This document shows, in pieces, positions 8,452 to 18,867 of a stretch of DNA of 32,000 nt; position 1 is the stretch's first letter; the number at the start of each line of letters is the position of its first letter. Both the position numbers and the translations under genes were made by a program. Location of the stretch: positions 27,086-59,085 of the forward strand of contig DATEEP010000158.1 of the NCBI GenBank assembly GCA_035281095.1. Direction: 5' to 3'. The notes beneath the pieces were generated by a model that saw only the letters and a program-made list of their open reading frames with translations, searched no databases and was not told the DNA's origin. Source of the DNA: Novosphingobium sp. Lineage in GTDB: Bacteria > Pseudomonadota > Alphaproteobacteria > Sphingomonadales > Sphingomonadaceae.

Positions 8452-8526
8452 GCTGCTGTAGCTCAGTGGTAGAGCGCACCCTTGGTAAGGGTGAGGTCGG
8501 GAGTTCAATCCTCCCCAGCAGCACCA
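8452..8526 (+). tRNA. tRNA-Thr (anticodon GGU), CCA encoded
   Basis: Hand-folded cloverleaf. The acceptor stem is GCTGCTG/CAGCAGC, the D stem GCTC/GAGC, and the anticodon stem CACCC/GGGTG. The anticodon loop is TTGGTAA. The T stem is GGGAG/CTCCC with loop TTCAATC, followed by discriminator A and CCA. Confidence 0.95.
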
Positions 8527-8528
8527 TT
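8482..8528. repeat. attL (3-prime part of tRNA-Thr from the anticodon loop, plus 2 nt)
   Basis: ttggtaagggtgaggtcgggagttcaatcctccccagcagcaccatt is identical to 18821-18867. Confidence 0.95.
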
Positions 8529-8613
8529 ATTTCCATATAAATCAAACATTTAACAACTTTGCTGGGCGAGGCTTTTTGGTTCGGGTAACGCCTCGGGTAA
8601 CTACGCCGCAGCG

Positions 8614-9567
8614 TTACCCGGCGTGCGCTGCAAGCCAGTTCGTGAGTCCTGCATCGACGGCGTGTTCTGCGAGGGTAAGGCAATCCCATAGGTGGACGGG
8701 CCGGGTGCAGTTACCGCTACGTGGCGCTACCGTGCCGGTGTGGTAGACTATAAAGAACCGGCTGCCGACTGTACTCGCCGCGAATGCCGCGACGCACTCG
8801 TCGGCAACCGATTGATTGATGGCGGACTTGACCTGCACGCTGATGATCTCGCGCGTGATGGGCTGTTCCAGCAGCAGGTCGATGTCCTTCATCGTTCCGC
8901 CTACTTCGGAGAGGCGGCGCCATCCGGCACCGGAAAAGATGAGATCGACGAGCAGTTCGAAGTCGCGCCAATGCAGGTCGCGGATGATGTCGGCGCTCGC
9001 TTCGATGAGTGCCCGCCGATGGATGCCCAGCGCGATGGCATTGGCCTCGCGTTCGCCGTTGATTCGCCGAACCGCATAATCGACGTGCTTCACCGCGCAG
9101 ATGGAACGCCGATAGGCGGCAAGCTGCGTGAGCTTGGTGCTGAGGCTGTTCTGGTCCAGCTTAATGCCGAAGCGGTCCACATTGCGCCAAGGGCCGATGG
9201 TGCGGCGAAATGCGGCGGGCTCGGTGAGGTCGGCAACGCCGGGGATCGCCTGCGCAGGCTCACTGAAGGCCCACCACATCTGTCCGAACGCGAAAGTGAT
9301 CCACAAAGTGTCGGAACCAAGGGTGAAAAAGTCCTGTAATTCGCGCAAGGTGCCGGTGGCGGTTGCCCTGTTCGCATAATAGTCCCGGTAGCGTTGCTCG
9401 GCCGTATCCCAGTCGCCTGCTGCGGCTTCCTCCACGGGGTCCTCGTTGTTGCTCCAGTATATAAGGCCTTCGTCGAGCGAGCGTCTTTCCCACGCTCCCC
9501 CGCGCCCCAGCTTGATGTAGCGCGTCTGCGCGGGCTGGATCGGATCGAACAGCGGCGTGGCGCTCAT
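8614..9567 (-). CDS. Mrr-type (PD-(D/E)xK) restriction-endonuclease-domain protein with an unrecognised ~200-aa N-terminal region
   Basis: The C-terminal WRDFELLVDLIFSGAGWRRLSEVGGTMKDIDLLLEQPITREIISVQVKS fits the Mrr catalytic pattern (FE..l....G......D.GiD......QxK). Start at ATG 9567 or GTG 9573. Confidence 0.7.
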   Translation of the reverse strand: MSATPLFDPIQPAQTRYIKLGRGGAWERRSLDEGLIYWSNNEDPVEEAAAGDWDTAEQRYRDYYANRATATGTLRELQDFFTLGSDTLWITFAFGQMWWAFSEPAQAIPGVADLTEPAAFRRTIGPWRNVDRFGIKLDQNSLSTKLTQLAAYRRSICAVKHVDYAVRRINGEREANAIALGIHRRALIEASADIIRDLHWRDFELLVDLIFSGAGWRRLSEVGGTMKDIDLLLEQPITREIISVQVKSAINQSVADECVAAFAASTVGSRFFIVYHTGTVAPRSGNCTRPVHLWDCLTLAEHAVDAGLTNWLAAHAG

Positions 9568-9828
9568 GCCCACGAACCGTCATTGTGGTTGGCGGTCGCC
9601 TCCCCACCAATCGCATTTCCTGCTTGCATCGTCGCCCCCAGCAGGGCGCGACGTTGTCTTCGGGCTTTCTCGTCGCGCCTATGTCCACTCGGGGCGACGG
9701 CCGAAGCCGGATGTTGGAAACCTACTTAGCATAGGCGCATGCGCCTTTACCGTTGCCGGCTGGACATGCGCGCATGCCACCCGGCCTCCAGAATCTGGCG
9801 ACCGAGTTGCTAAGCAGGGGTTTCCACG

Positions 9829-9859
9829 CCCCACCTCCCGGCTTTCACGGGAGGCGGGG
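9829..9859 (-). terminator. GC-rich hairpin downstream of the island operon (terminator-like, no U-tract)
   Basis: ccccacctcccg (9829-9840) pairs with cgggaggcgggg (9848-9859): 12 bp with one G-U on the minus-strand transcript and a 7-nt loop. It lies about 80 nt after the stop at 9938. Confidence 0.3.
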
Positions 9860-9937
9860 GCAGATTGCTCGATGGGCGACGGATTACAAGCGCAATGTAG
9901 GGCGGCTAGTTCGTGTGCTTGCCCAACCAGCTACAGT

Positions 9938-10321
9938 TCAATGGACTGCCTCTGCCCGCCACGCATCCCGTTGCGCCACCTCCAGCATCGCGGACTGGAA
10001 GCCGAGCGCGATGCACTGCTCGCGCGTGGCGAGTTGCCGGGCTGCGTGGCTGGACACGCGCGGGTCCAGCGCGTCCACCCAGACGGTGCGGCCGTTGTAG
10101 CCGTAGCCCAGGTAGCCGAAGAACGCCGCCAGTTCGGACGGCGACACGCCGTACAGCTTGGCGAAGTCGAGACACGACTTGATGGTGGGCCAGCGCTCCG
10201 GCAGCGTCAGCAGGGCGTGTTCGCGGCAGGCCCGGTGCGCGGCGCGCATCAGCGGCGGGAACAGGCCAGCGTAGCCGTCAAATAGCCGCTCCGCCGCCGT
10301 TAGTTCGTCCGCCTCGGTCAC
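9938..10321 (-). CDS. Hypothetical protein (127 aa), last gene of the island operon
   Basis: GTG start at 10321 overlaps the upstream stop (GTGA). Coding-like composition. No motif recognised. Confidence 0.55.
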   Translation of the reverse strand: MTEADELTAAERLFDGYAGLFPPLMRAAHRACREHALLTLPERWPTIKSCLDFAKLYGVSPSELAAFFGYLGYGYNGRTVWVDALDPRVSSHAARQLATREQCIALGFQSAMLEVAQRDAWRAEAVH

Positions 10322-10707
10322 GACCCGATCCCGCCGCGCCCGTGGGCGCGCTGGCCGTACTCGACAACCCGCGCCGCCTCGCAGGCGTGCGTCAGGTGCT
10401 GCAGCGGCTTGTCCTGCGTCAGGCCCTTCACCAGCGCCTGTTCGGGCGTGGTGCGGTAATCCTTCGCCAGTTCATCGGCGCGGCGGAACATGGCCTCTTC
10501 GTACACGTGCGAGCCGTAGGCAGGCTTGTCGTTGCGCTCGACCACGGCGGTGGCGCTCTTCAGGATGGCGGTGTCGTTCATGTCGGGTACTCCTTGTGCT
10601 GACTTGATGAGGACGCAGATCGCCCCCGCTTGCGCGGGGTTGTCCACGCTGCTGATCTCGTTGAGCTTGAGATTGGTGACGCGGTAGCGCTTGCCGGGGA
10701 TGGTCAC
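10318..10707 (-). CDS. Hypothetical protein; the N-terminal 42 aa carry a prohead-protease-like strand motif
   Basis: GTG at 10707 overlaps the upstream stop (GTGA). An alternative ATG at 10581 (MNDTAILK..) has a strong AAGGAG 7 nt upstream. The motif is LKLNEISSVDNPAQAGA. The long 317-aa track version is rejected. Confidence 0.5.
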   Translation of the reverse strand: MTIPGKRYRVTNLKLNEISSVDNPAQAGAICVLIKSAQGVPDMNDTAILKSATAVVERNDKPAYGSHVYEEAMFRRADELAKDYRTTPEQALVKGLTQDKPLQHLTHACEAARVVEYGQRAHGRGGIGS

Positions 10708-11087
10708 GCGCGGGCCTCCTCGATCGGCACGACCTTGTTGCTGAAGTCCAGCGCGGACGTGTGGTTGATGAAGTCGACGAAGGGCATCATCTGCGTCGGC
10801 GCGACACGGACACAGAGCGCGCGGGCCAGCACCGGTGCCTCGGCCACCACCTCCTTCGCGACGACGAAGGCGAACATACGTTCGCGGGCGCGGCGAAGAT
10901 CGTCGAGCGCGAGTTGCTCGGCCTGCACGTCCGACCGGTACAGCTTGTCGTTGGCGTCGCGGATCGCGTCCAGCGCGGCTTCCGCCTCCCGGATTGCGGC
11001 GACGAAGTCGCGGGCGGCGCGTTCGCGTTCGCCCACGGCGTCCATCCGCTCGCGTTCGATGCGCTTGCGCTTCAGGCTTCCGAGCAT
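10704..11087 (-). CDS. Hypothetical coiled-coil-like protein (127 aa)
   Basis: ATG at 11087 (MLGSLKRKRIERER..) with GGAG upstream. It overlaps the end of the upstream gene by 16 nt. The charged, Ala-rich sequence suggests helices. Confidence 0.5.
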   Translation of the reverse strand: MLGSLKRKRIERERMDAVGERERAARDFVAAIREAEAALDAIRDANDKLYRSDVQAEQLALDDLRRARERMFAFVVAKEVVAEAPVLARALCVRVAPTQMMPFVDFINHTSALDFSNKVVPIEEARA

Positions 11088-11476
11088 TCGGGCTTCTCCA
11101 TTGATAAATCGGACGTCGACCACTGGGCCGGATCGACGCGGCGGCGCACGTCGTCGATGATGTCGGCCGCACGTTCTTCACTGAACCCGGCGCGGACCAA
11201 GTCGCCGGTTTGCAGGGTCCAGAAGTCGGCGAAGAAGACCGGGCCGTTCCGCTCGCGTTCGGCGCGCTCAAGGTCCAACCGGTCTTTCAGCGTCTCCGGC
11301 GGACGGACGCCGCGCAGCAGGTCGTCCAGCCGGGACAGGCTCTCGATACTGCCTTTCGGCGGATGCACCTCGGGGCTGCGCAGCAACGCAAGGCGCAACG
11401 TGCGGCGGGCGTCCGGCCCCATGAGCTGGAAGCCGACGGCGAGGGCTAGGTTGTCGAGCGCGGTGTCAGGTGTCAT
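11072..11476 (-). CDS. Hypothetical protein (134 aa)
   Basis: ATG at 11476 overlaps the TerS-like gene end by 11 nt. No motif recognised. Confidence 0.5.
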   Translation of the reverse strand: MTPDTALDNLALAVGFQLMGPDARRTLRLALLRSPEVHPPKGSIESLSRLDDLLRGVRPPETLKDRLDLERAERERNGPVFFADFWTLQTGDLVRAGFSEERAADIIDDVRRRVDPAQWSTSDLSMEKPECSEA

Positions 11477-11975
11477 CGGCCGCCTTCCCGTCGATCAAGG
11501 TCAGGGCCGGGGGGCGCACACTGCCCATCAGGCGCATGGCGACGGAGGTCACGGCCTCGCCCAGCACACCGGCATCGACGTCGTGGGTGACGCGCTTGTT
11601 CAGCACCAGACCGGCGGTGTCACGGTAGCCGGGCAACATAGCGCGGGCGCGAAGCTCAAGCAGGCGGTCGCTGTAACGGCGGATGGTGCCGACGACCTGC
11701 TCGCGGTACTTGCCGCCGAACACGGGCTCGTCGTAGCCCTCCACGGCGCGGCGGTAGATTTCGTGGTCTATCTCGGCGCGTGCCGTGTCCAGCGCCTCCT
11801 CCCACGCGTCGGCAAAGGCGGGATCGCGCTGGCGCTCGTCTTTGAAGGTGCTGGCGGCACCGCCCGGACTGCCGGGAGAGGCGGCCCGAGCGGCGCGCGC
11901 TACGATGCCGTGGCGTGCCAATTCGGCTAAGAACGCTGCCTTACGCGCAGCCGAGAGAGGAACACCGTTCGACAT
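11466..11975 (-). CDS. Phage terminase small-subunit-like protein
   Basis: The layout FLAELARHG..ARAARAA..RDPAFADAWEEALDTARAEIDHEIYRRAVEGYDEPVFGG..VGTIRRYSDRLLELRARAMLP matches the alphaproteobacterial prophage TerS-like family as I recall it. The HTH segment looks degenerate. Confidence 0.6.
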   Translation of the reverse strand: MSNGVPLSAARKAAFLAELARHGIVARAARAASPGSPGGAASTFKDERQRDPAFADAWEEALDTARAEIDHEIYRRAVEGYDEPVFGGKYREQVVGTIRRYSDRLLELRARAMLPGYRDTAGLVLNKRVTHDVDAGVLGEAVTSVAMRLMGSVRPPALTLIDGKAADDT

Positions 11976-12511
11976 GCCCCAGAGTATAGCTGGCGACCGG
12001 CCGAAGGCAGACGGTTAAGGCTTGAGCTATCCCCTCGGAGCCTAGAGAATCGGCCAATTCGTCACCGAATCGCTTTCATCAACCTCAGCGTCGCCAGAAT
12101 ATTGCCGCGAATTGCAACGGAATTGTGGAAAAATACTTTTGGGGGAAAAGAACGCCATCGGCCCCTTGCGCACAAGGCGGGTGCCGGATTTCCTGCGAGT
12201 CTGTGCATCATTGCAGGCCAGCCAGAAAATTTCCAGCCGATTTACCCACACTATCCACAGGTTGATCCCCCGTATTCCGGCTTGCGCAACCGGGTTCGGG
12301 CATTCACCATGATGGAGGTTTGCGGGTTTCAGTTCATACTGAATGGCGCTTAACCACGGAAATGGGGAGGTCACCATAGGCGGCCTCCCCATCCCGAACA
12401 GAACGTGGCCCCTGTTACGGGTGCGCGATCCTGCCCTGTGTGCAACCCATGCCTAGCATGGATCAGACGGGACGCAAAGATTGTCGGGCCACCCTCTTAC
12501 GAGGTTTGAAC

Positions 12512-12637
12512 ATGCCCAAGGTCAGTATCCCGCCGGGGAAGCGCGTGATTTGGCGTGCTTGGATCACGGTCAAGGGACGCAGGGTCTACGCGAATGAGCG
12601 TGGACTTCGTGCGTTCCCGGTTCTCGTGGACGAATAA
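12512..12637 (+). CDS. Tiny basic ORF (41 aa)
   Basis: ATG 12512 with GAGG 8 nt upstream; MPKVSIPPGKRVIWRAWITVKGRRVYANERGLRAFPVLVDE. The longer GTG version at 12440 is less likely. Confidence 0.35.
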   Translation: MPKVSIPPGKRVIWRAWITVKGRRVYANERGLRAFPVLVDE

Positions 12638-12732
12638 GCCGATCACCGCCCCCGCCTTTCATTGCACATGGAGGACGGGGGCACTTCCCGGCTGCTGATC
12701 TAGACATGTCTCTGGTCAGGAAAGGACAAGGT

Positions 12733-12867
12733 ATGGCTGATAAAAAGACGCCGACGCAAACTTCCCACCGCAGTTCGCGGACGGGACAGTTTGTGACCGA
12801 GCGCTACGCCAAGACGCATCCGAACACGACCGAACGGGAACGCATCAAGCATCCCGAGCGGAAGTAA
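12733..12867 (+). CDS. Tiny ORF (44 aa), conserved-looking ..GQFVTERYAKTHPNTTERE.. motif
   Basis: ATG 12733 is preceded by GGAAAGGA. MADKKTPTQTSHRSSRTGQFVTERYAKTHPNTTERERIKHPERK. A stem-loop follows immediately. It is below the ORF-track length cutoff. Confidence 0.5.
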   Translation: MADKKTPTQTSHRSSRTGQFVTERYAKTHPNTTERERIKHPERK

Positions 12868-12874
12868 ATGGGGC

Positions 12875-12904
12875 GAGGCTCCCGGTTAGCCGGGGGCCTC
12901 GTTT
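12875..12904 (+). terminator. Rho-independent-type terminator after the 44-aa ORF
   Basis: gaggctcccgg / ccgggggcctc forms an 11-bp stem (one G-U) with loop ttag, followed by gttt. Confidence 0.5.
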
Positions 12905-13104
12905 CGGCGAACAGCGGCGCGCCGGTGCAGAAATTACCCCTCGCATTACCCGGTGGACTGCTCGTTGCCCATAAAGCCACGTTGCCCAGCCATCTTCGGG
13001 ACCAGAGCCCAGCCTAGCAGAGGCCCGGCTATCGGGTCGGTGCCGCGCGCCCGCGCGCGAGGGCGGGGCGGAACGGCCGGACGATCCTGCGCTACCCAAC
13101 AGGG

Positions 13105-13355
13105 CGATCCTCCCCCGATCCCCCACCGAACCCCCAGAGGGGGGTCGGCTGGAACCCAACAATTCCGCCATTTCCCGACACCGAACCTCCCCGAACCCCC
13201 TCTTTTCTATAAAGGAGAGTAAGGAGTGGCACGGCTAGCGCCCTGCTTAAGCGCTCCCGGGGCCTCTAATGCAAATGGGGGGATCGGGGGGGATCGGGGG
13301 GTTCGGCCAGCGGAAATGCTAGGAAATCTTGGGCGGGAGCCGATCCTCCCCTCGG
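13105..13355. repeat. Iteron-like array: C-run units on the left and G-run units on the right of an AT-rich core
   Basis: The left arm is cgatcctcccccgatcccccaccgaaccccc (13105-13135) and ccgaacctccccgaaccccc (13181-13200). The AT-rich core tcttttctataaagg sits at 13201-13215. The right arm is ggggggatcgggggggatcggggggttcgg (13277-13306) and ccgatcctcccctcgg (13340-13355). Confidence 0.6.
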
Positions 13356-13526
13356 CCACGGACTATGGACCGCCCCCCCTCCCTTCCATCGGCACCGCCG
13401 TGGGAATCTGGCGATGGCGCCTCGCGCCGACAATGCGGAAGTTACACCCGAGAAATCCGCTTTAGGTTTCGGAAAGCGCCGCGAGGGCAAAATCACTGAA
13501 GGTCAAAATTTCTACGGAGACAGACG

Positions 13527-14042
13527 TTGGGTATCATGGGTTGGAGCGTGGCTTTGATTGCAGCTTCCGCGATTTCGGCAACAGTCGGGTCAATGATCAC
13601 GTCGCACGCTATGAACAATGATTTCCAAAAAATGCAGGAAACCTTACAAAAACGTGAAAAATTCATAAAATCGAGGGAGGAAGTTGGAGCATGCCTGACA
13701 TTTTACTATACGCGAAGCCCTCTAGCGGACGCCATTCATGAGCACGCAAACGGCAGAACTGAACTGCTTCGAGTTCCGATAGGTGTCGAAGAGAACCTAG
13801 TGGAATGGTCCGTACCCGGCCTCAGCAAAAGCAAAACCGCTAACGTCCGAAAAAATTTTCCGGTTGGGCCGTATAACCACGTGACCATTGAGGGTATCAT
13901 AGCCCCTCTATCGATTGCACCTGAAGGACGTCCGTACTGCGATCAAGAGTTGTACGCGTGGGACTATAACGTCGCGATGCTGCATTTACTCGGTCGGACC
14001 TCGGAGATCGTGCCGCGTAGTATCAGCCCAGAGCTGCGCTGA
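13527..14042 (+). CDS. Orphan membrane-anchored protein (171 aa), AT-richer than its surroundings
   Basis: TTG start at 13527 with GGAGA 6 nt upstream. An N-terminal hydrophobic helix (WSVALIAASAISATVGSMI) precedes a ~140-aa domain with no recognised motif. It is on the opposite strand to the rest of the island. Confidence 0.6.
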   Translation: MGIMGWSVALIAASAISATVGSMITSHAMNNDFQKMQETLQKREKFIKSREEVGACLTFYYTRSPLADAIHEHANGRTELLRVPIGVEENLVEWSVPGLSKSKTANVRKNFPVGPYNHVTIEGIIAPLSIAPEGRPYCDQELYAWDYNVAMLHLLGRTSEIVPRSISPELR

Positions 14043-14120
14043 AACCGTTGTATCGCATCGGCCCGATTGCAAACATCTTGATTTCAAGGGCCGACTGCAC
14101 CCCACAACAAAGCTACCGCG

Positions 14121-16346
14121 CTAATACGGCTCATCCCCCCGCCCATCGTCCACCACGATCATATGCAACCGCTCCTCTCCGGTCCCGCGAACATAAGCCC
14201 ATTCCTGCGGTCCGCCGTCGAAACGCAGCTTCTTCCGTTCAAAGCCCAGCTCGCGCATGGCATCGCCCAGCCGGGCGTTCTGGTCCTGCGTTTGCATGCC
14301 CTTCGGGATGCGCAGGATGCGCCACACGGCCGTGCTGCTTATCTTGCCGTTCTGCTCGCCGATGGCTTCGGCAATCGAAACGACGAAGGGGTCTTCGATC
14401 CGGCGGGCATCCTGCTCGCTCTCCGCCGCGCCCCACAGGCCTTCGTCGAGACGTATACTCGCGCCCGTTGCCTCCCGTACCGCCGCCTCTGCCCATAGCT
14501 GGTCCACATCGCGCCGTAGTGCCGTCAGGTCAAACCCCTCCACCTTCACCGGCCAGAACCGCCGGTTGCCGGTCAGGTCGCGCAGATACTGTTCGCTGTT
14601 CGTGGTGCCGAAGATCACGCACTGCCGGGGCGCGATAACGGGCAGGCGGGCGTACGACATTCGCGCTGTGTCCTGCTGGCGGGAGAGGAACCCCTTAAGG
14701 TGCTCCACCTCGCCTTTGCGCATGCCCTTCAACTCGGCGGCTTCCGCGATCCAGCGGCCAGACAGCCGCTCGATCACCACCTTGCTCTCCGCATTCAGGG
14801 GCAAATCGTCGATAAACCATTCGTCCCGCGCGGCCAGGACGCGAAGCGCAGACGACTTGTTCGTGCCCTGCTTGCTCTCCATCACCAGCATCTCGTCGAA
14901 CTTCACGCCCGGCTGGCGCACCCGGCGCACTGCCGCGACCAGCATCAACGATCCGACGGCGCGGGAGTAAGGCGTGTCGTCCGCGCCGCCATAGGCCGAT
15001 AGCCAGCCGTCGATCCGGGGAACGCCGTCCCACACCAGCCCGTCCAGAAAGTCGCGCACAGGATGGAAGGCAGAACGCCGGGCCGTATCGACTACCACCC
15101 TCACGAAGAAATCGAACGTGGGCCGGAAGCGATACCGGTCGTCGATTTCGAGCCAGAGGCGATTAAGCGCGGGATCATCGAGATATGGGCCGCAAGCTTC
15201 CAGCCCCGCAACAAGCGCCCGGTCCGCGAATAGATCGTGCCGGACGGCAACCTGCATTTTCGACATGGCCAGCCGGATGTTGTGCTGGTTGGGGTAGGGT
15301 ACGCCGTTCTTGTCGGTCTCGAACGGCTCCCCCTCCGCTTCCACCGCCTGCCGTGCGCGCTCCACCTGTCGCCACGCGTATTCGATATGGTTCTTCTGGA
15401 CGCGGATGTGGGCCGAGATGCCCCACGCGGCGTCGGTAAGGATGCCGACGATCAGCCCATCGGGCACCTTGCGCCGTACCAACTCGCAGCAGACCGCATA
15501 AACGACCTTCGAGCGGTCTCCGTCGAAATCCTCGGGGTTGTGCCCCTGCACGATCAACATGCGGCAGCGGCTGTCCTCGCCGATGCCCCACTGTTTGAGT
15601 TCGTCGATGTCGTCGAGCGGTCGGACATCGCCGCGCGGGATCGGTACACGGGTTATCCCGTCCGCCTTCGTCGGCGCATCGGCAGGCGCGCATCTAAACG
15701 CGCTCAAGGGATAGATGCGGTCGGGATGCAGTTCGACGATGGCAGTCGGGCGGGCAGGGCGGCCTGCATCCCGCTTCTTCTTGTTGGGCAAGTTCACGCT
15801 GCCGGGCAGCCGAAGCAGGCGGTCCACGTTATGCGTGCCCTCGTCCGCATCGAAGTCGATACGCAGTGCGCGTGCGCGTTCTTCTATGTCTACGACGCGC
15901 TCTTCCGCGCCACCAAGAAAGAACGGTTCGTCCAGCTTCCAGATAAGGTGCAGGCCGTTGCCGGAGCGGATTATGGCGGAGGGCGCAGGCGAGTGTGCCT
16001 GTTCGCGCAGTTCGGCCAGCTTGGTGTCCAGCCAGACGTCGATCTGTTCGGGCGGGAAGTCCTTTGGCGGGTCCAGATCGACATGCAGGTGGCAGGTCTC
16101 GACGAGGTCGGCCTTCTTGGGCTTCTGGTCTACGCCTTTCTGCTGGGCGGCGACGGTGTAGTACATGCCGTTCTGCCCGGAATGTTCCGCGACAAGCGCG
16201 CGCACGTCAGCGGCGGTGTTCGCCCAATACGTGGGCGTGCCGGTCTTCCAGTCCGGGTCCGAAACGGTAATCGGCCAAGGACCGCCGGGGCGCAGCCACT
16301 CCAAGAACTCGACGGCTGCCTCTGCATCCGTGCGGGGTTCGCTCAT
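14121..16346 (-). CDS. Primase-polymerase (AEP) fused to a VirE-type P-loop NTPase
   Basis: The N-terminal AEP motifs are HLHVDLD (DxD), SGNGLHLIW (sGxGxH) and LRLPGSVN. The C-terminal half resembles the virulence-associated protein E family: ..MLVMESKQGTNKSSAL.. (P-loop region) and RWIAEAAEL (Walker B-like). Confidence 0.88.
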   Translation of the reverse strand: MSEPRTDAEAAVEFLEWLRPGGPWPITVSDPDWKTGTPTYWANTAADVRALVAEHSGQNGMYYTVAAQQKGVDQKPKKADLVETCHLHVDLDPPKDFPPEQIDVWLDTKLAELREQAHSPAPSAIIRSGNGLHLIWKLDEPFFLGGAEERVVDIEERARALRIDFDADEGTHNVDRLLRLPGSVNLPNKKKRDAGRPARPTAIVELHPDRIYPLSAFRCAPADAPTKADGITRVPIPRGDVRPLDDIDELKQWGIGEDSRCRMLIVQGHNPEDFDGDRSKVVYAVCCELVRRKVPDGLIVGILTDAAWGISAHIRVQKNHIEYAWRQVERARQAVEAEGEPFETDKNGVPYPNQHNIRLAMSKMQVAVRHDLFADRALVAGLEACGPYLDDPALNRLWLEIDDRYRFRPTFDFFVRVVVDTARRSAFHPVRDFLDGLVWDGVPRIDGWLSAYGGADDTPYSRAVGSLMLVAAVRRVRQPGVKFDEMLVMESKQGTNKSSALRVLAARDEWFIDDLPLNAESKVVIERLSGRWIAEAAELKGMRKGEVEHLKGFLSRQQDTARMSYARLPVIAPRQCVIFGTTNSEQYLRDLTGNRRFWPVKVEGFDLTALRRDVDQLWAEAAVREATGASIRLDEGLWGAAESEQDARRIEDPFVVSIAEAIGEQNGKISSTAVWRILRIPKGMQTQDQNARLGDAMRELGFERKKLRFDGGPQEWAYVRGTGEERLHMIVVDDGRGDEPY

Positions 16347-16533
16347 ATCAAAAACTCGCTCTACGCTGGGCAGGCGGAGCGGGACGCGGCAATGGTAACG
16401 GGCAGATTATCAACGATCCGGGCTCTGCCCGGCCAGCGTAAGGGCCTATATAAGACCCGGCGCTGGGTTTTGGTCGGCTCCGCGCTCTCCATTGCTGGGT
16501 CTCACTGCTCGTACTCCGGCGGTGGGACCCAAC

Positions 16534-16731
16534 TCAGGCGGCCTCGCGGGCCGCCGCTCTCTCGCCAACCCAGCCCAGCACCTCCGAGCGCAGCCATGCG
16601 ACCTTGTTCGGGCCGAGATGCAACTGCTTCGGGAAGCGGCCTTCGCGAATCATCTGGTAAATGTGGACCTTCGAGAAGCCGATAAGTTGTTCGACTTCCT
16701 TCATGGTCATGAGCCGGTCGTCCGGGTCCAT
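16534..16731 (-). CDS. alpA: AlpA-family excisionase / transcriptional regulator
   Basis: MTMKEVEQLIGFSKVHIYQMIREGRFPKQLHLGPNKVAWLRSEVLGWV matches the AlpA HTH pattern. AAGGA lies upstream of the ATG at 16731. Confidence 0.85.
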   Translation of the reverse strand: MDPDDRLMTMKEVEQLIGFSKVHIYQMIREGRFPKQLHLGPNKVAWLRSEVLGWVGERAAAREAA

Positions 16732-16814
16732 AGTCTCGTCCTTCTAGCCGTATGGGCGGGTATGGACGGATTATCGGCGGTTAGCTTGGCGCCCGGAATT
16801 TCTAAAGAAATCGG

Positions 16815-17369
16815 CTATTTCGCTCTTTTCTTTCGCGTCGGCAGTTCATTTCGGGCGTTGAGTTCGCGGAGATAGCTGTCGGCTCGTCGTTCGGCCGTTG
16901 CACGATCTTGACCGAACACGTCGGGGAACAGCCTGACGAGGTGGAAGCCAACAAATCGGCACGCTGGGTGGGGAGCCTTGCCCTCGCTCTCGCGGTGCGC
17001 ACGATTGCCCACCTCGGCTGGGCCATTATCTTCGACGAAGATCGCGAACAGTTCGCGAACCGCAGCTTTCACCGGCCACACCTCAGGCCGCTCTCCCTGT
17101 TTTCCCAAACTTTCCGACAGCAATGCTTGTGCTGCTAAACTTGGATCAAAGGCAGCGGGTTCTTCTTTGTTGTGCTGGTTCGAGAGCTCACATTGGATCC
17201 ACCATTTCGCCTCGGGCTCAAGTGCTTCCCAAGCGGCAACGAACTTGGCGACACCCTTTGTTTCAGCCTTTCGACGATGGTGCAGGAAGGAAAGATCGAC
17301 ACTCGCGCCGTCGATGGCGCTCCGGACCCGTTCCTCTGCCTCTGGCGTCAGTTCCACAGCTTCCCCCAC
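16815..17369 (-). CDS. Hypothetical protein (184 aa) between int and alpA
   Basis: Uninterrupted ORF on the island's main strand with somewhat lower GC. It overlaps the integrase end by 22 nt. No motif recognised. Confidence 0.5.
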   Translation of the reverse strand: MGEAVELTPEAEERVRSAIDGASVDLSFLHHRRKAETKGVAKFVAAWEALEPEAKWWIQCELSNQHNKEEPAAFDPSLAAQALLSESLGKQGERPEVWPVKAAVRELFAIFVEDNGPAEVGNRAHRESEGKAPHPACRFVGFHLVRLFPDVFGQDRATAERRADSYLRELNARNELPTRKKRAK

Positions 17370-18658
17370 GTCTCCAGCGCTGCGCGCTTCTCGTCCAGAT
17401 AGCTGTAGCGGTTATAGGTGCCCGCCACACCCTGCACCACGTGGCCAAGCACGCGCTCTATGTGTTCCTGTTGCACGCCCAGCCGGGCCATGTGCGTGGC
17501 GACGGAGCGGCGGATGTCGTGTACGGTCCAGTTGGGCACGGCGGCCAGTTCGATGCCCTCTGCTGCGGCTTTCGCCGCCTGCTCCTCGATCAATTCGTCA
17601 ATTCGGGACTTCGCCTTCGAAAACCCGCTCACGGGGCGCACGCCGCTGGTGGTGGAGAACATGCAGTCGCCGCCGTTCCAGTTGGGCAGGGACTGGACAA
17701 GCGACCACGCCGGGGCCGACAGCGGGAAGATGTGCGGGCGCTTCGTCTTGTAGCGCGACGAAGGTATCTCGACGGTGCGCTGCTCCGCGTCGATCCATCC
17801 GCGTTCCAGCTCCGCGATCTCGGAGCGGCGCTGGCCGGTCAGGATCAACATTTGGTACATCGGGCCGAAGGGATAGCCGAACTTGACGGCGGCGTCCTAG
17901 ATGCGGCGCAATTCGTCCATCGACAGCACGCGCTCGCGCGGGGCGTAGCCCAACTCGGGCCGTCGCATGCCCGCCAGCGGACTGGCTGGCAGGTGTCCGC
18001 GATCCGCTGCCCAGTTGAACATCTTGGTCAGGTGCTTGCGCAGTTCGCGGGCGAGGGCTGGTCCGCGCCGCGTAACGACGTCGTCGAGCAAGTCGTGCAC
18101 CTCCGCGCGACTGATCGTCTCGACCAGTCGGCCTCGCCAGATCGGGAGGGCGTGGTCGGTGATGAGTCGTTCGGCGGGAACGCGGCCGAGCTTGCCGTTC
18201 GGTCCCTTGGGCGTGGCCTCGGCCTTGCCCTCCTGCGCGTCCGCAAGCAGCTTGGCGCGGTCGCGGGCGAAGCGCCCGTCTTTCGTGTTGGGCTTCACGT
18301 GCAGTTCCACGAAGCGGTCCAGCACGGCCTCGAAAGAGCGGGAGGCCTCCGCGCTTCGCTTCTCGGCGCGCAGATCGCGGGCGTCCTTGCCCCGGTCGGC
18401 CGGTTCGAGCACTGCCTTCGCCGCTTCCCGCGCGGCGGTCAGGCCCATCAGCGGGTATTCGCCAACCTTGAGCCGGATCAGCTTGCCGCGCGTGCCGTTG
18501 TCGCCGGCACCGGCAAGGCGGTACATCACGTACCACGACTTGCGCCCTCTCTCCGTGACCCGGAGCGTCAGCCCGGAGAGATAGGTGTCGTGCACCTCGT
18601 AACGGTCGGCCTTTGGGGCATATTTCTCGACGCCCAAATCGGTCAGTCTGGCTTGCAT
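17348..18658 (-). pseudogene. int: Tyrosine integrase (P4-like, DUF4102-type arm-binding N-terminus) interrupted by one in-frame TAG
   Basis: Track ORFs 17897..18658 and 17348..17860 share one frame, and the only stop between them is TAG at 17897-17899. The catalytic residues are present downstream (TGQRRSE, HDIRRS, LGH, YNRYSY). Confidence 0.85.
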
Positions 18659-18820
18659 GGTCGGCTCCGGGGTAATCTCGGGGTAACTGAAAATGGGGCT
18701 ATGGGGACATATTCGCCCATACCGCCCTTTACCCCGAAATACGCCTAACCCCGTAGAAAACCTAATGTTTTCCCGCTAGATCTTATTGCTGCTTACTCGC
18801 CGATACGCTATCGTTGGAAA

Positions 18821-18867
18821 TTGGTAAGGGTGAGGTCGGGAGTTCAATCCTCCCCAGCAGCACCATT
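18821..18867. repeat. attR (duplicate of the tRNA-Thr 3-prime part)
   Basis: 47/47 identity with 8482-8528. There is no 5-prime tRNA half upstream of it. Confidence 0.95.

Follow-up and report, generated by a model that had tools for sequence, protein, structure and literature searches.

The DNA analysed here (the window, 32,000 nucleotides) belongs to a contig of 59,086 bp in a metagenome-assembled genome (MAG) of Novosphingobium sp. and contains a 10,339-bp island inserted in a tRNA-Thr(GGU) gene. The island is bracketed by a perfect 47-nt direct repeat (8482-8528 = 18821-18867, its size being the start-to-start distance), which starts 2 bases ahead of the anticodon (8484-8486) and ends 2 bases after the encoded CCA. 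As the repeat is perfect over 47 nt and coincides with the 3' half of the tRNA gene, it is a signature of site-specific integration rather than a chance match. Inside it lie genes for an integrase, an AlpA-family regulator and a replicase, a gene-poor gap, an operon of five genes headed by a small terminase subunit gene (terS), and a cargo gene. We consider it probable that the island belongs to a family of phage satellites of Sphingomonadales that has not been described before and that resembles the phage-inducible chromosomal islands (PICIs). The features bearing on this interpretation are as follows.

8452-8526, plus strand: intact tRNA-Thr(GGU) gene (ARAGORN; Rfam tRNA, 73 bits), the 3' half of which is the attB/attL core
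8482-8528: attL, the 47-bp repeat in its first copy, beginning in the anticodon loop and ending 2 nt beyond the CCA
8614-9573, minus strand: cargo gene, 319 aa, with a C-terminal Mrr-type restriction endonuclease domain (Pfam Mrr_cat, 3.9e-7)
9938-10321, minus strand: gD, fifth operon gene, 127 aa, family-specific, identical to HKX80102.1
10318-10707, minus strand: gC, fourth operon gene, 129 aa, with about 40 N-terminal residues homologous to a phage protein and a C-terminal four-helix domain
10704-11087, minus strand: gB, third operon gene, 127 aa, mostly helical as judged from sequence, family-specific, no database match
11072-11476, minus strand: gA, second operon gene, 134 aa, family-specific, no database match
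11466-11975, minus strand: terS, first operon gene, homologue of the small terminase subunit, 169 aa
11976-12034, minus strand: conserved non-coding block directly upstream of the terS start
13105-13306: candidate replication origin, repeats and their inverted copies on either side of an AT-rich core (13200-13225)
14121-16346, minus strand: replicase, 741 aa, primase-like N-terminal domain fused to a VapE/VirE-type (D5-like) NTPase (VapE-like_dom, 1.4e-67)
16534-16731, minus strand: alpA, AlpA-family regulator/excisionase, 65 aa (Pfam Phage_AlpA, 3.6e-17; phrog_2790, 4.1e-14)
17348-18658, minus strand: pseudogene (in this copy) of a tyrosine integrase with the domains Arm-DNA-bind_3, Phage_int_M and Phage_integrase
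18821-18867: attR, second copy of the repeat (partial tRNA), 162 nt upstream of the integrase start codon

Gene calls were compared with GenBank, and those of the operon are identical to HKX80102-HKX80105. Scans of all island open reading frames (ORFs) against Pfam, PHROG and NCBIfam gave no match to large terminase (TerL), portal, capsid, tail or lysis families. A hidden virion gene is unlikely, because only about 1.5 kb of island DNA is unassigned, which is too short to hold one. Much of the initial annotation, made from the letters of the window, withstood these searches: the island boundaries and the tRNA-overlapping repeat were reproduced, the AlpA-type regulator and the Mrr-type nuclease next to attL were recognized by the matches listed above, the five genes of the operon do appear translationally coupled, and the absence of genes for virion and lysis proteins agrees with the family scans.

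The assignment of the first operon product to the small terminase subunits is solid at the sequence level. Residues 3-131 match phrog_4044 (3.5e-30), residues 48-147 are 45% identical to the annotated TerS of Pseudomonas Abidjanvirus and PaMx11-type phages, and proteins of Achromobacter JWX-type and Bordetella phages show a comparable level of similarity. In phage Ab18 the homologue (ORF45) is encoded directly ahead of TerL and portal genes, and in IMG/VR phage contigs the gene immediately after it encodes a TerL of phrog_2 or phrog_979; the 42-kb contigs of this kind are BPP-1-like podoviruses with relatives among Caulobacter phages. In the island family, terS is followed by four small genes and no TerL. 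The call is based on family membership and on the position of the phage homologues, as the AlphaFold2 (AF2) model is too poor to confirm the fold (predicted local distance difference test score, pLDDT, 51; low confidence, an all-helical pattern only) and the TerS profile found no relative among PDB sequences. The initial annotation had named this ORF as TerS-like and had staked its case on its not being unrelated to terminases; the phrog_4044 match and the phage homologues preceding TerL bear this out.

The non-coding block upstream of terS (GGGGATAGCTCAAGCCTTAACC...CCGGTCGCCAGCTATACT, then 7 nt, then ATG) is about 60 nt long, ends 7-9 nt before the start codon, is conserved in both subfamilies of the family and occurs once per element. 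From its position and conservation, it may be a promoter/operator or a pac site. It leaves almost no space for a ribosome-binding site before the terS ATG, and the operon may be leaderless. An RNA element at this place was considered and dropped, as RNAalifold yielded no consensus structure and the tRNA was the sole Rfam match in the window. Control of the island by the SOS response was also dropped: the window has two copies of the alphaproteobacterial LexA box (GTTC-N7-GTTC), each within a gene, a number expected by chance, and the block upstream of terS has no SOS box. Promoter and terminator scans were uninformative.

The genes terS-gA-gB-gC-gD overlap at each junction (stops/starts 11466/11476, 11072/11087, 10704/10707 and 10318/10321). 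Of the four small genes, three (gA, gC and gD) are conserved in the whole family, and gB is represented in subfamily 2 by divergent homologues at the same position. Among ten island proteins, NCBIfam gave no significant match, the single one listed (DpdE for gB) being far below the model cut-off. Family hidden Markov models (HMMs) of gA-gD were run on all six-frame ORFs of 129 fetched loci, and phage matches were obtained for gC only, namely gp72 of Roseobacter phage RDJL Phi 1 (6e-8) and ORF085 of Pseudomonas phage KPP23 (7e-5). In hhalign, residues 9-46 of gC align with residues 8-46 of gp72 (probability 94.8%, E 5.6e-8), and gC matches phrog_24785 (8.9e-6), the family of gp72 and ORF085. 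The two phage proteins (370 and 356 aa) are encoded between a head-morphogenesis gene and the cement-type and major capsid genes, and the C-terminal half of gp72 is long, Ala/Glu/Lys-rich and probably helical; from this context, they are probable scaffolding-type proteins of the Xiamenvirus/KPP23-type siphoviruses. The AF2 model of gC (pLDDT 78.7) has a disordered N-terminus of 40 residues and a confidently predicted four-helix domain. No relatives of the gC and gD profiles or of RDJL gp72 were found among PDB sequences, and the gC family is tiny (24 representative clusters). Our working idea, by analogy, is that gC may mimic the N-terminus of a scaffolding protein of the helper phage. SaPI CpmB, from a Staphylococcus aureus pathogenicity island (SaPI), resembles part of the scaffolding protein of its helper and provides a parallel. 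That TerS and gC might both lead to a single known helper lineage was considered and dropped, since RDJL Phi 1 TerS and KPP23 ORF077 were not significant against the family TerS; a weak gC match in L054 was spurious.

The island is not a solitary case. Homologues of TerS number 271, most of them unnamed, with the named ones coming from Sphingomonas, Erythrobacter, Tsuneonella, Sphingopyxis and Brevundimonas. Many Logan contigs with a family TerS are 10.7-11.5 kb long, and two of them, L001 (10,810 bp) and L007 (10,749 bp), are whole elements with the gene order of the island. Both carry 30 nt of a tRNA 3' half at each end, with an overlap of 13 or 10 nt between the ends, as expected from a k=31 assembly graph of an island bounded by a 47- or 50-nt repeat. 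A genome scan with one genome per species gave 34 loci. The family order (int, variable ORF, alpA, pri, gap, terS, gA, gB, gC, gD, cargo, tRNA) recurs in Sphingopyxis, Stakelama, Sphingomonas, Sphingomicrobium, Qipengyuania, Tsuneonella, Croceicoccus, Parasphingorhabdus and Sandaracinobacter, at least nine sphingomonad genera in all, and was also seen on many contigs from metagenomes; relatives occur in Brevundimonas too. Proteins of the relatives are 35-75% identical, and none of the members examined has virion or lysis genes. The integration targets are tRNA-Thr(GGT), Gly(GCC), Val(CAC) and Arg(CCG), with bounding repeats of 46-57 nt; repeats of 47-54 nt in relatives cover the same tRNA segment as attL. 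The related islands at tRNA-Thr for which the initial annotation had proposed to search thus exist and are joined by those at three other tRNA genes. All core members have the intact tRNA on the cargo side, and the distance from int to the partial copy is 167-219 nt. The position of the integrase next to attR had been thought unusual, and is instead the ordinary layout of the family.

Two further properties of the family point to mobility and packaging. The 10,920-bp contig L024, the first and last 141 nt of which are identical, corresponds to a 10,779-bp circle with all family genes and a single attP between the cargo and int, identical to the 50-nt tRNA-Gly repeat that flanks the integrated element L029; L024 has the form expected of an excised or concatemeric element. 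A further sign of mobility is L022, a tandem array with three att copies. Measured from att to att, 13 intact elements are 10,562 ± 282 bp long (coefficient of variation 2.7%), while the cargo region varies from 1,410 to 3,722 bp and is strongly anticorrelated with the rest of the element (r = -0.90, n = 13), so that the standard deviation of the total length is a third of the 855 bp expected if cargo and backbone varied independently. Such a length lock is consistent with selection of the kind that encapsidation imposes.

Several observations on individual family members may be added. L024 (WGNV01000012.1) was binned as a planctomycete MAG (Tepidisphaera sp.); its attP being the tRNA-Gly repeat of Sphingomonas koreensis, it is probably mis-binned. 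L016 (2934-9015) and L017 (1-6082) are the same element (99.97% identity across 6,082 bp) in MAGs of a single study, labelled Sphingomicrobium in one case and Tepidiformaceae (Chloroflexota) in the other, which is likely a binning artefact rather than transfer across phyla. The isolate Tsuneonella suprasediminis Ery12 has two members, L023 and L027, at tRNA-Val and tRNA-Arg(CCG), with different integrases (59% and 34% identity, respectively, to that of the window). In L022 (140-14040, Parasphingorhabdus sp. MAG), a tandem array with three att copies was found, where three 54-62-nt tRNA-Gly repeats delimit an unrelated 8.76-kb island and then a 5.09-kb mini-element that has kept terS, gA-gD and cargo with an int fragment only, a product of either tandem accretion or deletion. 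A distant set from IMG/VR (L046-L050) keeps the primase-gap-terS pairing near tRNA-Leu(TAA), Pri being about 36% and TerS 46-50% identical; therefore, the association of pri with terS reaches beyond the core family. Finally, in L043 (10525-20170, uncultured bacterium MFD01213.bin.2.30), a 26-35-nt repeat CTGTTCGCTGGAGCGCGTGGTTAGGCCG is found in about ten copies, irregularly spaced by 0.4-1.8 kb, on the downstream side of a distant TerS homologue; it could be a repetitive extragenic palindromic (REP)-like or miniature inverted-repeat transposable element (MITE)-like sequence.

The integrase of the Novosphingobium copy was annotated initially as a tyrosine integrase over 17348-18658; family and domains are right, and the reading frame is not intact. 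An in-frame TAG at 17897-17899 (ELRRI*DAA) splits the arm-binding and central domains from the catalytic domain, and the GenBank annotation covers only the 253-aa N-terminal piece. In 13 of 13 full-length relatives the gene is uninterrupted, with Trp at the position of the stop codon. By this comparison, the stop is a TGG-to-TAG change predicted to remove the catalytic domain; it represents either a real inactivating mutation or an error of the MAG consensus or assembly. The Novosphingobium copy is thus probably stranded, unless the stop is an assembly error or an integrase is supplied in trans.

The replicase matches PHROG primase and helicase families (8e-81 to 5e-11), its N-terminal half matching phrog_1829 (5.3e-11). 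The initial annotation had described it as an archaeo-eukaryotic primase (AEP)-type primase-polymerase fused to a VirE-type NTPase. The NTPase is of the VapE/VirE type and the primase families agree, while the AEP assignment of the N-terminal half is only suggestive, because the match to Pfam RepB_primase (3.6e-4) is below the Pfam cut-off; no PDB relative of this half was found by sequence. Across the relatives the replicase is modular, with a conserved N-terminal domain and a C-terminal NTPase of either VapE or DUF5906 type. Between replicase and terS there is a gene-poor gap of about 2.1 kb. Here repeats CGATCCCCC/CCGAACCCCC (13105-13136, 13179-13200) oppose the inverted copies GGGGGATCG/GGGGGTTCGG (13277-13306), which locates the iteron-like repeats reported initially. 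Relatives have different, element-specific repeats at the same place, CGTAACCCC in eight or nine copies in L014 and L015 and CGTTCCCCC in six copies in L030; element-specific iterons of this kind fit cognate origins.

Each element has one or two genes in the cargo slot, which separates gD from the tRNA. A 29%-identical homologue of the Mrr-type protein occupies the same slot in L012, and PADLOC gave no match for the nuclease of the window. In the relatives, the slot contains restriction genes (Eco57I-type methylases with BsuBI/PstI nucleases, other methylases, Mrr-type nucleases) as well as PD-T4-6-type kinases, reverse transcriptases, ApeA (HEPN), an AAA_13 ATPase and an HD/HD_assoc dGTPase-type protein. 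This content agrees with the expectation that variable slots of such elements often carry anti-phage genes.

The remaining ORFs of the island belong to its variable parts:

12440-12637 and 12733-12867, plus strand: two small ORFs in the variable gap, no PHROG or NCBIfam match
13527-14042, plus strand: accessory ORF, 171 aa, hydrophobic N-terminus, identical to HKX80109.1, in a segment of 49% GC
16815-17369, minus strand: ORF of 184 aa, in the slot of variable content that separates int from alpA, no Pfam, PHROG or NCBIfam match

The 184-aa ORF has a homologue only in L007 (48% identity), and an unrelated 189-aa ORF stands at the same position in L001. The 171-aa ORF has no significant match in Pfam, PHROG or NCBIfam; lying in a 49% GC patch of a genome of about 65% GC, it resembles a recent accessory acquisition in the replication-packaging gap. 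Neither the small gap ORFs nor the variable ORFs of relatives gave a significant PHROG match. The GC content is 0.56-0.60 at 12001-13000 and 0.49 at 13501-14000, against 0.65-0.70 nearby, and the AT-richer gap noticed initially is real. The flanks consist of housekeeping genes (IleRS, RibF and PurK on one side; a sodium:solute symporter, nucleotidyl transferase and short-chain dehydrogenase on the other), the immediate neighbours of the island being a 340-aa ORF without family match and the sodium:solute symporter gene.

Taken as a satellite, the island suggests the following life cycle, which beyond integration is drawn by analogy with PICIs and SaPIs. As read from the sequence, the P4-type integrase would join the 47-nt attP, which equals the tRNA-Thr(GGU) 3' half, to the tRNA gene by recombination and thereby regenerate an intact tRNA. 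Upon infection by or induction of a helper phage, AlpA would turn the element on and promote excision, and the primase-VapE replicase would start at the iteron origin (about 13.1-13.3 kb) to amplify the circle. The satellite TerS would bind a site on satellite DNA, for which the block upstream of terS is a candidate, and recruit the large terminase of the helper. The four co-translated small proteins might disturb or redirect helper capsid assembly, with gC as the lead, its N-terminus copying a phage scaffolding-type protein. The genome of about 10.6 kb would then be packaged singly into a small capsid or, as a multimer, into a full head, and the cargo, one anti-phage system per element and here the Mrr-type nuclease, would repay the host for carriage. 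A bolder proposal, which we regard as speculative and rather less likely to be right than wrong, is that terS-gA-gB-gC-gD is a new capsid-hijacking kit and the family a distinct alphaproteobacterial class of satellites, in which gC is a scaffold mimic redirecting or poisoning head assembly, gA, gB and gD are new interference or packaging factors, and the 10.6-kb lock reflects a defined packaging unit. Such a unit could be a small capsid or, by arithmetic only, four copies per headful of about 42 kb of a BPP-1-like helper.

A number of observations weigh against the satellite interpretation. Helper dependence, induction and encapsidation are all predictions from sequence. The closest phage TerS proteins are about 45% identical over 60% of the length and come from beta- and gammaproteobacterial phages, and no helper was identified. 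TerS and gC point to different known phages, the RDJL TerS reaching a probability of 5.8% against the family profile and the Ab18 scaffold not matching gC. No homologues of gA, gB and gD were detectable in Pfam, PHROG and NCBIfam (for gD, in PDB either), the C-terminal domain of gC has no detectable homologue, and its model gave no fold match. The integrase is interrupted in the Novosphingobium copy, the L024 circle could come from collapsed tandem copies, the 13 sized elements are phylogenetically non-independent, and no exact match to an empty attB was found in JGI metagenomes. Some of the same facts would suit a replicative integrative defence island that does not travel in particles, with the terS operon acting as an anti-phage decoy or the TerS-like protein co-opted as a DNA-binding regulator: the cargo slot is dominated by defence genes, three of the four small proteins have no phage homologues, degenerate copies without integrase persist (L022, 5.1 kb; L029; L033), and the Novosphingobium copy combines a dead integrase with an intact operon. 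We find this unlikely, though the best of the alternatives. A length of 10.56 ± 0.28 kb with compensation between cargo and backbone has no obvious reason in a purely chromosomal defence island, the intact integrases, the use of four tRNA targets and the existence of a circular form speak for frequent horizontal movement, and no conjugation or mobilisation gene that could account for such movement was found in the Pfam and PHROG scans.

Movement without a helper phage, through vesicles, natural transformation or particles of the gene transfer agent (GTA) type, would be expected of an integrative plasmid-like element, and the autonomous-looking replicon with iterons and the circular form accord with it, as do published marine data, where about 20% of virion-packaged elements have no integrases and some concatemers occur in vesicle fractions. 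Such an element would leave a conserved TerS-headed operon with a member related to capsid assembly unexplained, and no partition, relaxase or conjugation gene was detected (Pfam, PHROG, NCBIfam); we judge this explanation to be quite improbable. The initial annotation had itself allowed that the ORFs might be scattered remnants of an ordinary prophage, one that retained int, the regulator, the replication gene and terS. The nonsense codon in int and the phage-derived TerS are in keeping with decay, but the comparative data across the family led us to reject this reading, and we leave it only the slightest chance. In nine or more genera, at least 13 intact elements keep one compact gene set in constant order, and, since the order is conserved at protein identities of 35-75%, the set has evolved as a unit; sizes are uniform, one element is circular, none has virion or lysis genes, and independent decay would not converge on a shared layout. 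The satellite interpretation, already put forward for this island in the initial annotation, has thus been strengthened by the conserved family, the TerS without TerL, the circular relative, the size lock and the defence slot; the Novosphingobium copy itself is probably not self-mobile.

If the satellite interpretation is confirmed, the family would, to judge from the searched literature, be the first satellite-helper system open to experiment in Sphingomonadales, and in cultured Alphaproteobacteria generally, and intact copies in several cultured strains from culture collections make the idea testable. Strains with intact copies include Sphingopyxis panaciterrulae DSM 27163, Tsuneonella suprasediminis Ery12, Croceicoccus gelatinilyticus 1NDH52, Qipengyuania proteolytica 6B39 and Sandaracinobacter neustonicus PAMC 28131. 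The family would offer a packaging and assembly module without homology to known Cpm, Sid, Rpp and Ppi proteins, a natural example of genome-length selection with a trade-off between cargo and backbone at 10.6 kb, and a one-slot exchange site for defence genes that could be mined for new anti-phage systems. For annotation, it accounts for a recurrent block of "hypothetical proteins" beside sphingomonad tRNA genes.

Among known satellites, the PICIs are the closest in organization. The SatelliteFinder core list for PICIs comprises an integrase, an alpA/merR/stl regulator, a primase-replicase, a capsid-morphogenesis gene and terS. Four of these components are clearly present: an integrase at one end of the element (its ORF broken here, intact in 13 relatives), an alpA-type regulator adjoining it, a replicase with adjoining iterons that form its own candidate origin as judged from sequence, and a small terminase subunit. 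The capsid-morphogenesis component is present only tentatively, as no known capsid or Cpm profile matches and gC resembles a probable phage scaffold only over its N-terminal 40 aa. Other structural and lysis genes are absent, and the size falls within 10-15 kb (10,339 bp; family mean 10,562 bp). The biological definition of PICIs includes helper-dependent induction, specific packaging, high-frequency transfer, helper interference and att sites never used by prophages; the signs that bear on it, the circular relative and the size lock, are indirect, and the att sites of the family lie in tRNA-Thr, Gly, Val and Arg. With the Gram-negative PICIs EcCICFT073 and PmCI172, the sphingomonad elements share the order int, alpA, primase-replicase with adjacent iteron origin, and packaging module, as well as terS, the absence of virion and lysis genes, a size of about 10 kb, and positions for accessory and defence genes behind the packaging module as well as between int and its neighbouring regulator gene. 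They differ in the host, in terS coming first and being followed by four family-specific small genes, in which no similarity to Cpm, Ccm, Rpp and Ppi-type proteins was detectable, and in their integration in tRNA 3' halves with int far from the intact tRNA. A published PICI survey, in which proteobacterial or firmicute chromosomes accounted for more than 99.9% of the PICIs, makes no mention of Alphaproteobacteria in its main text, and no description of satellites in Sphingomonadales was found in the searched literature.

Other satellite types resemble the family in part. SaPIs (TerS_S, CpmA/CpmB, Ppi) share the concept of a satellite TerS that redirects the helper terminase together with small co-expressed proteins that remodel the capsid or block helper packaging; however, there is no sequence homology, and SaPIs have an Stl repressor rather than AlpA, a size of about 15 kb and Gram-positive hosts. 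P4-like satellites, which are frequent in enterobacterial genomes, share the size of about 11 kb, a P4-type integrase at a tRNA gene, an AlpA/Vis-type regulator and a primase-helicase replicase, but the Pfam and PHROG scans of the island revealed none of Sid, Psu, Delta and Epsilon. Capsid-forming PICIs have their own capsid, prohead protease, portal and head-tail connector, none of which was detected in the island or its relatives. The phage-inducible chromosomal minimalist islands (PICMIs) of Vibrio are integrated beside fis, have three core proteins only and lack capsid-remodelling genes; membership in this group was rejected, the island being located in tRNA-Thr and carrying a five-gene terS operon. 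To our knowledge, neither P4, which uses the cos site of its helper, nor the PICMIs encode TerS, and of the three satellite groups whose hallmark layout the initial annotation had seen in the island, only the PICIs remain.

Lastly, two groups of predicted or packaged elements from marine bacteria are similar. The PICI-like tycheposons of Prochlorococcus share a tRNA-targeting tyrosine recombinase (the targets include tRNA-Thr-ggt), a primase or VirE-type helicase, terS and cargo, as well as tandem arrays split by partial tRNAs and degenerate remnants. They belong to another host phylum, their cargo often serves nutrient acquisition, whereas that of the sphingomonad elements serves defence, and tycheposon hallmark genes form a gene-sharing cluster of their own. 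The VEIMEs, integrative mobile elements encapsidated in virions and likened here by description only, also are small and combine an integrase, AlpA, primase/helicase and TerS, and some occur in Alphaproteobacteria. The TerS proteins that they encode have their nearest relatives in co-occurring phages, and the elements are packaged as concatemers filling a normal phage head. VEIME monomers range from less than 5 kb to 16.8 kb and their packaging was shown directly, whereas the sphingomonad elements are locked at about 10.6 kb and their packaging is a prediction. Similar predicted satellites having thus already been published, the novelty of the sphingomonad elements is that of a new family, not of a new kind.

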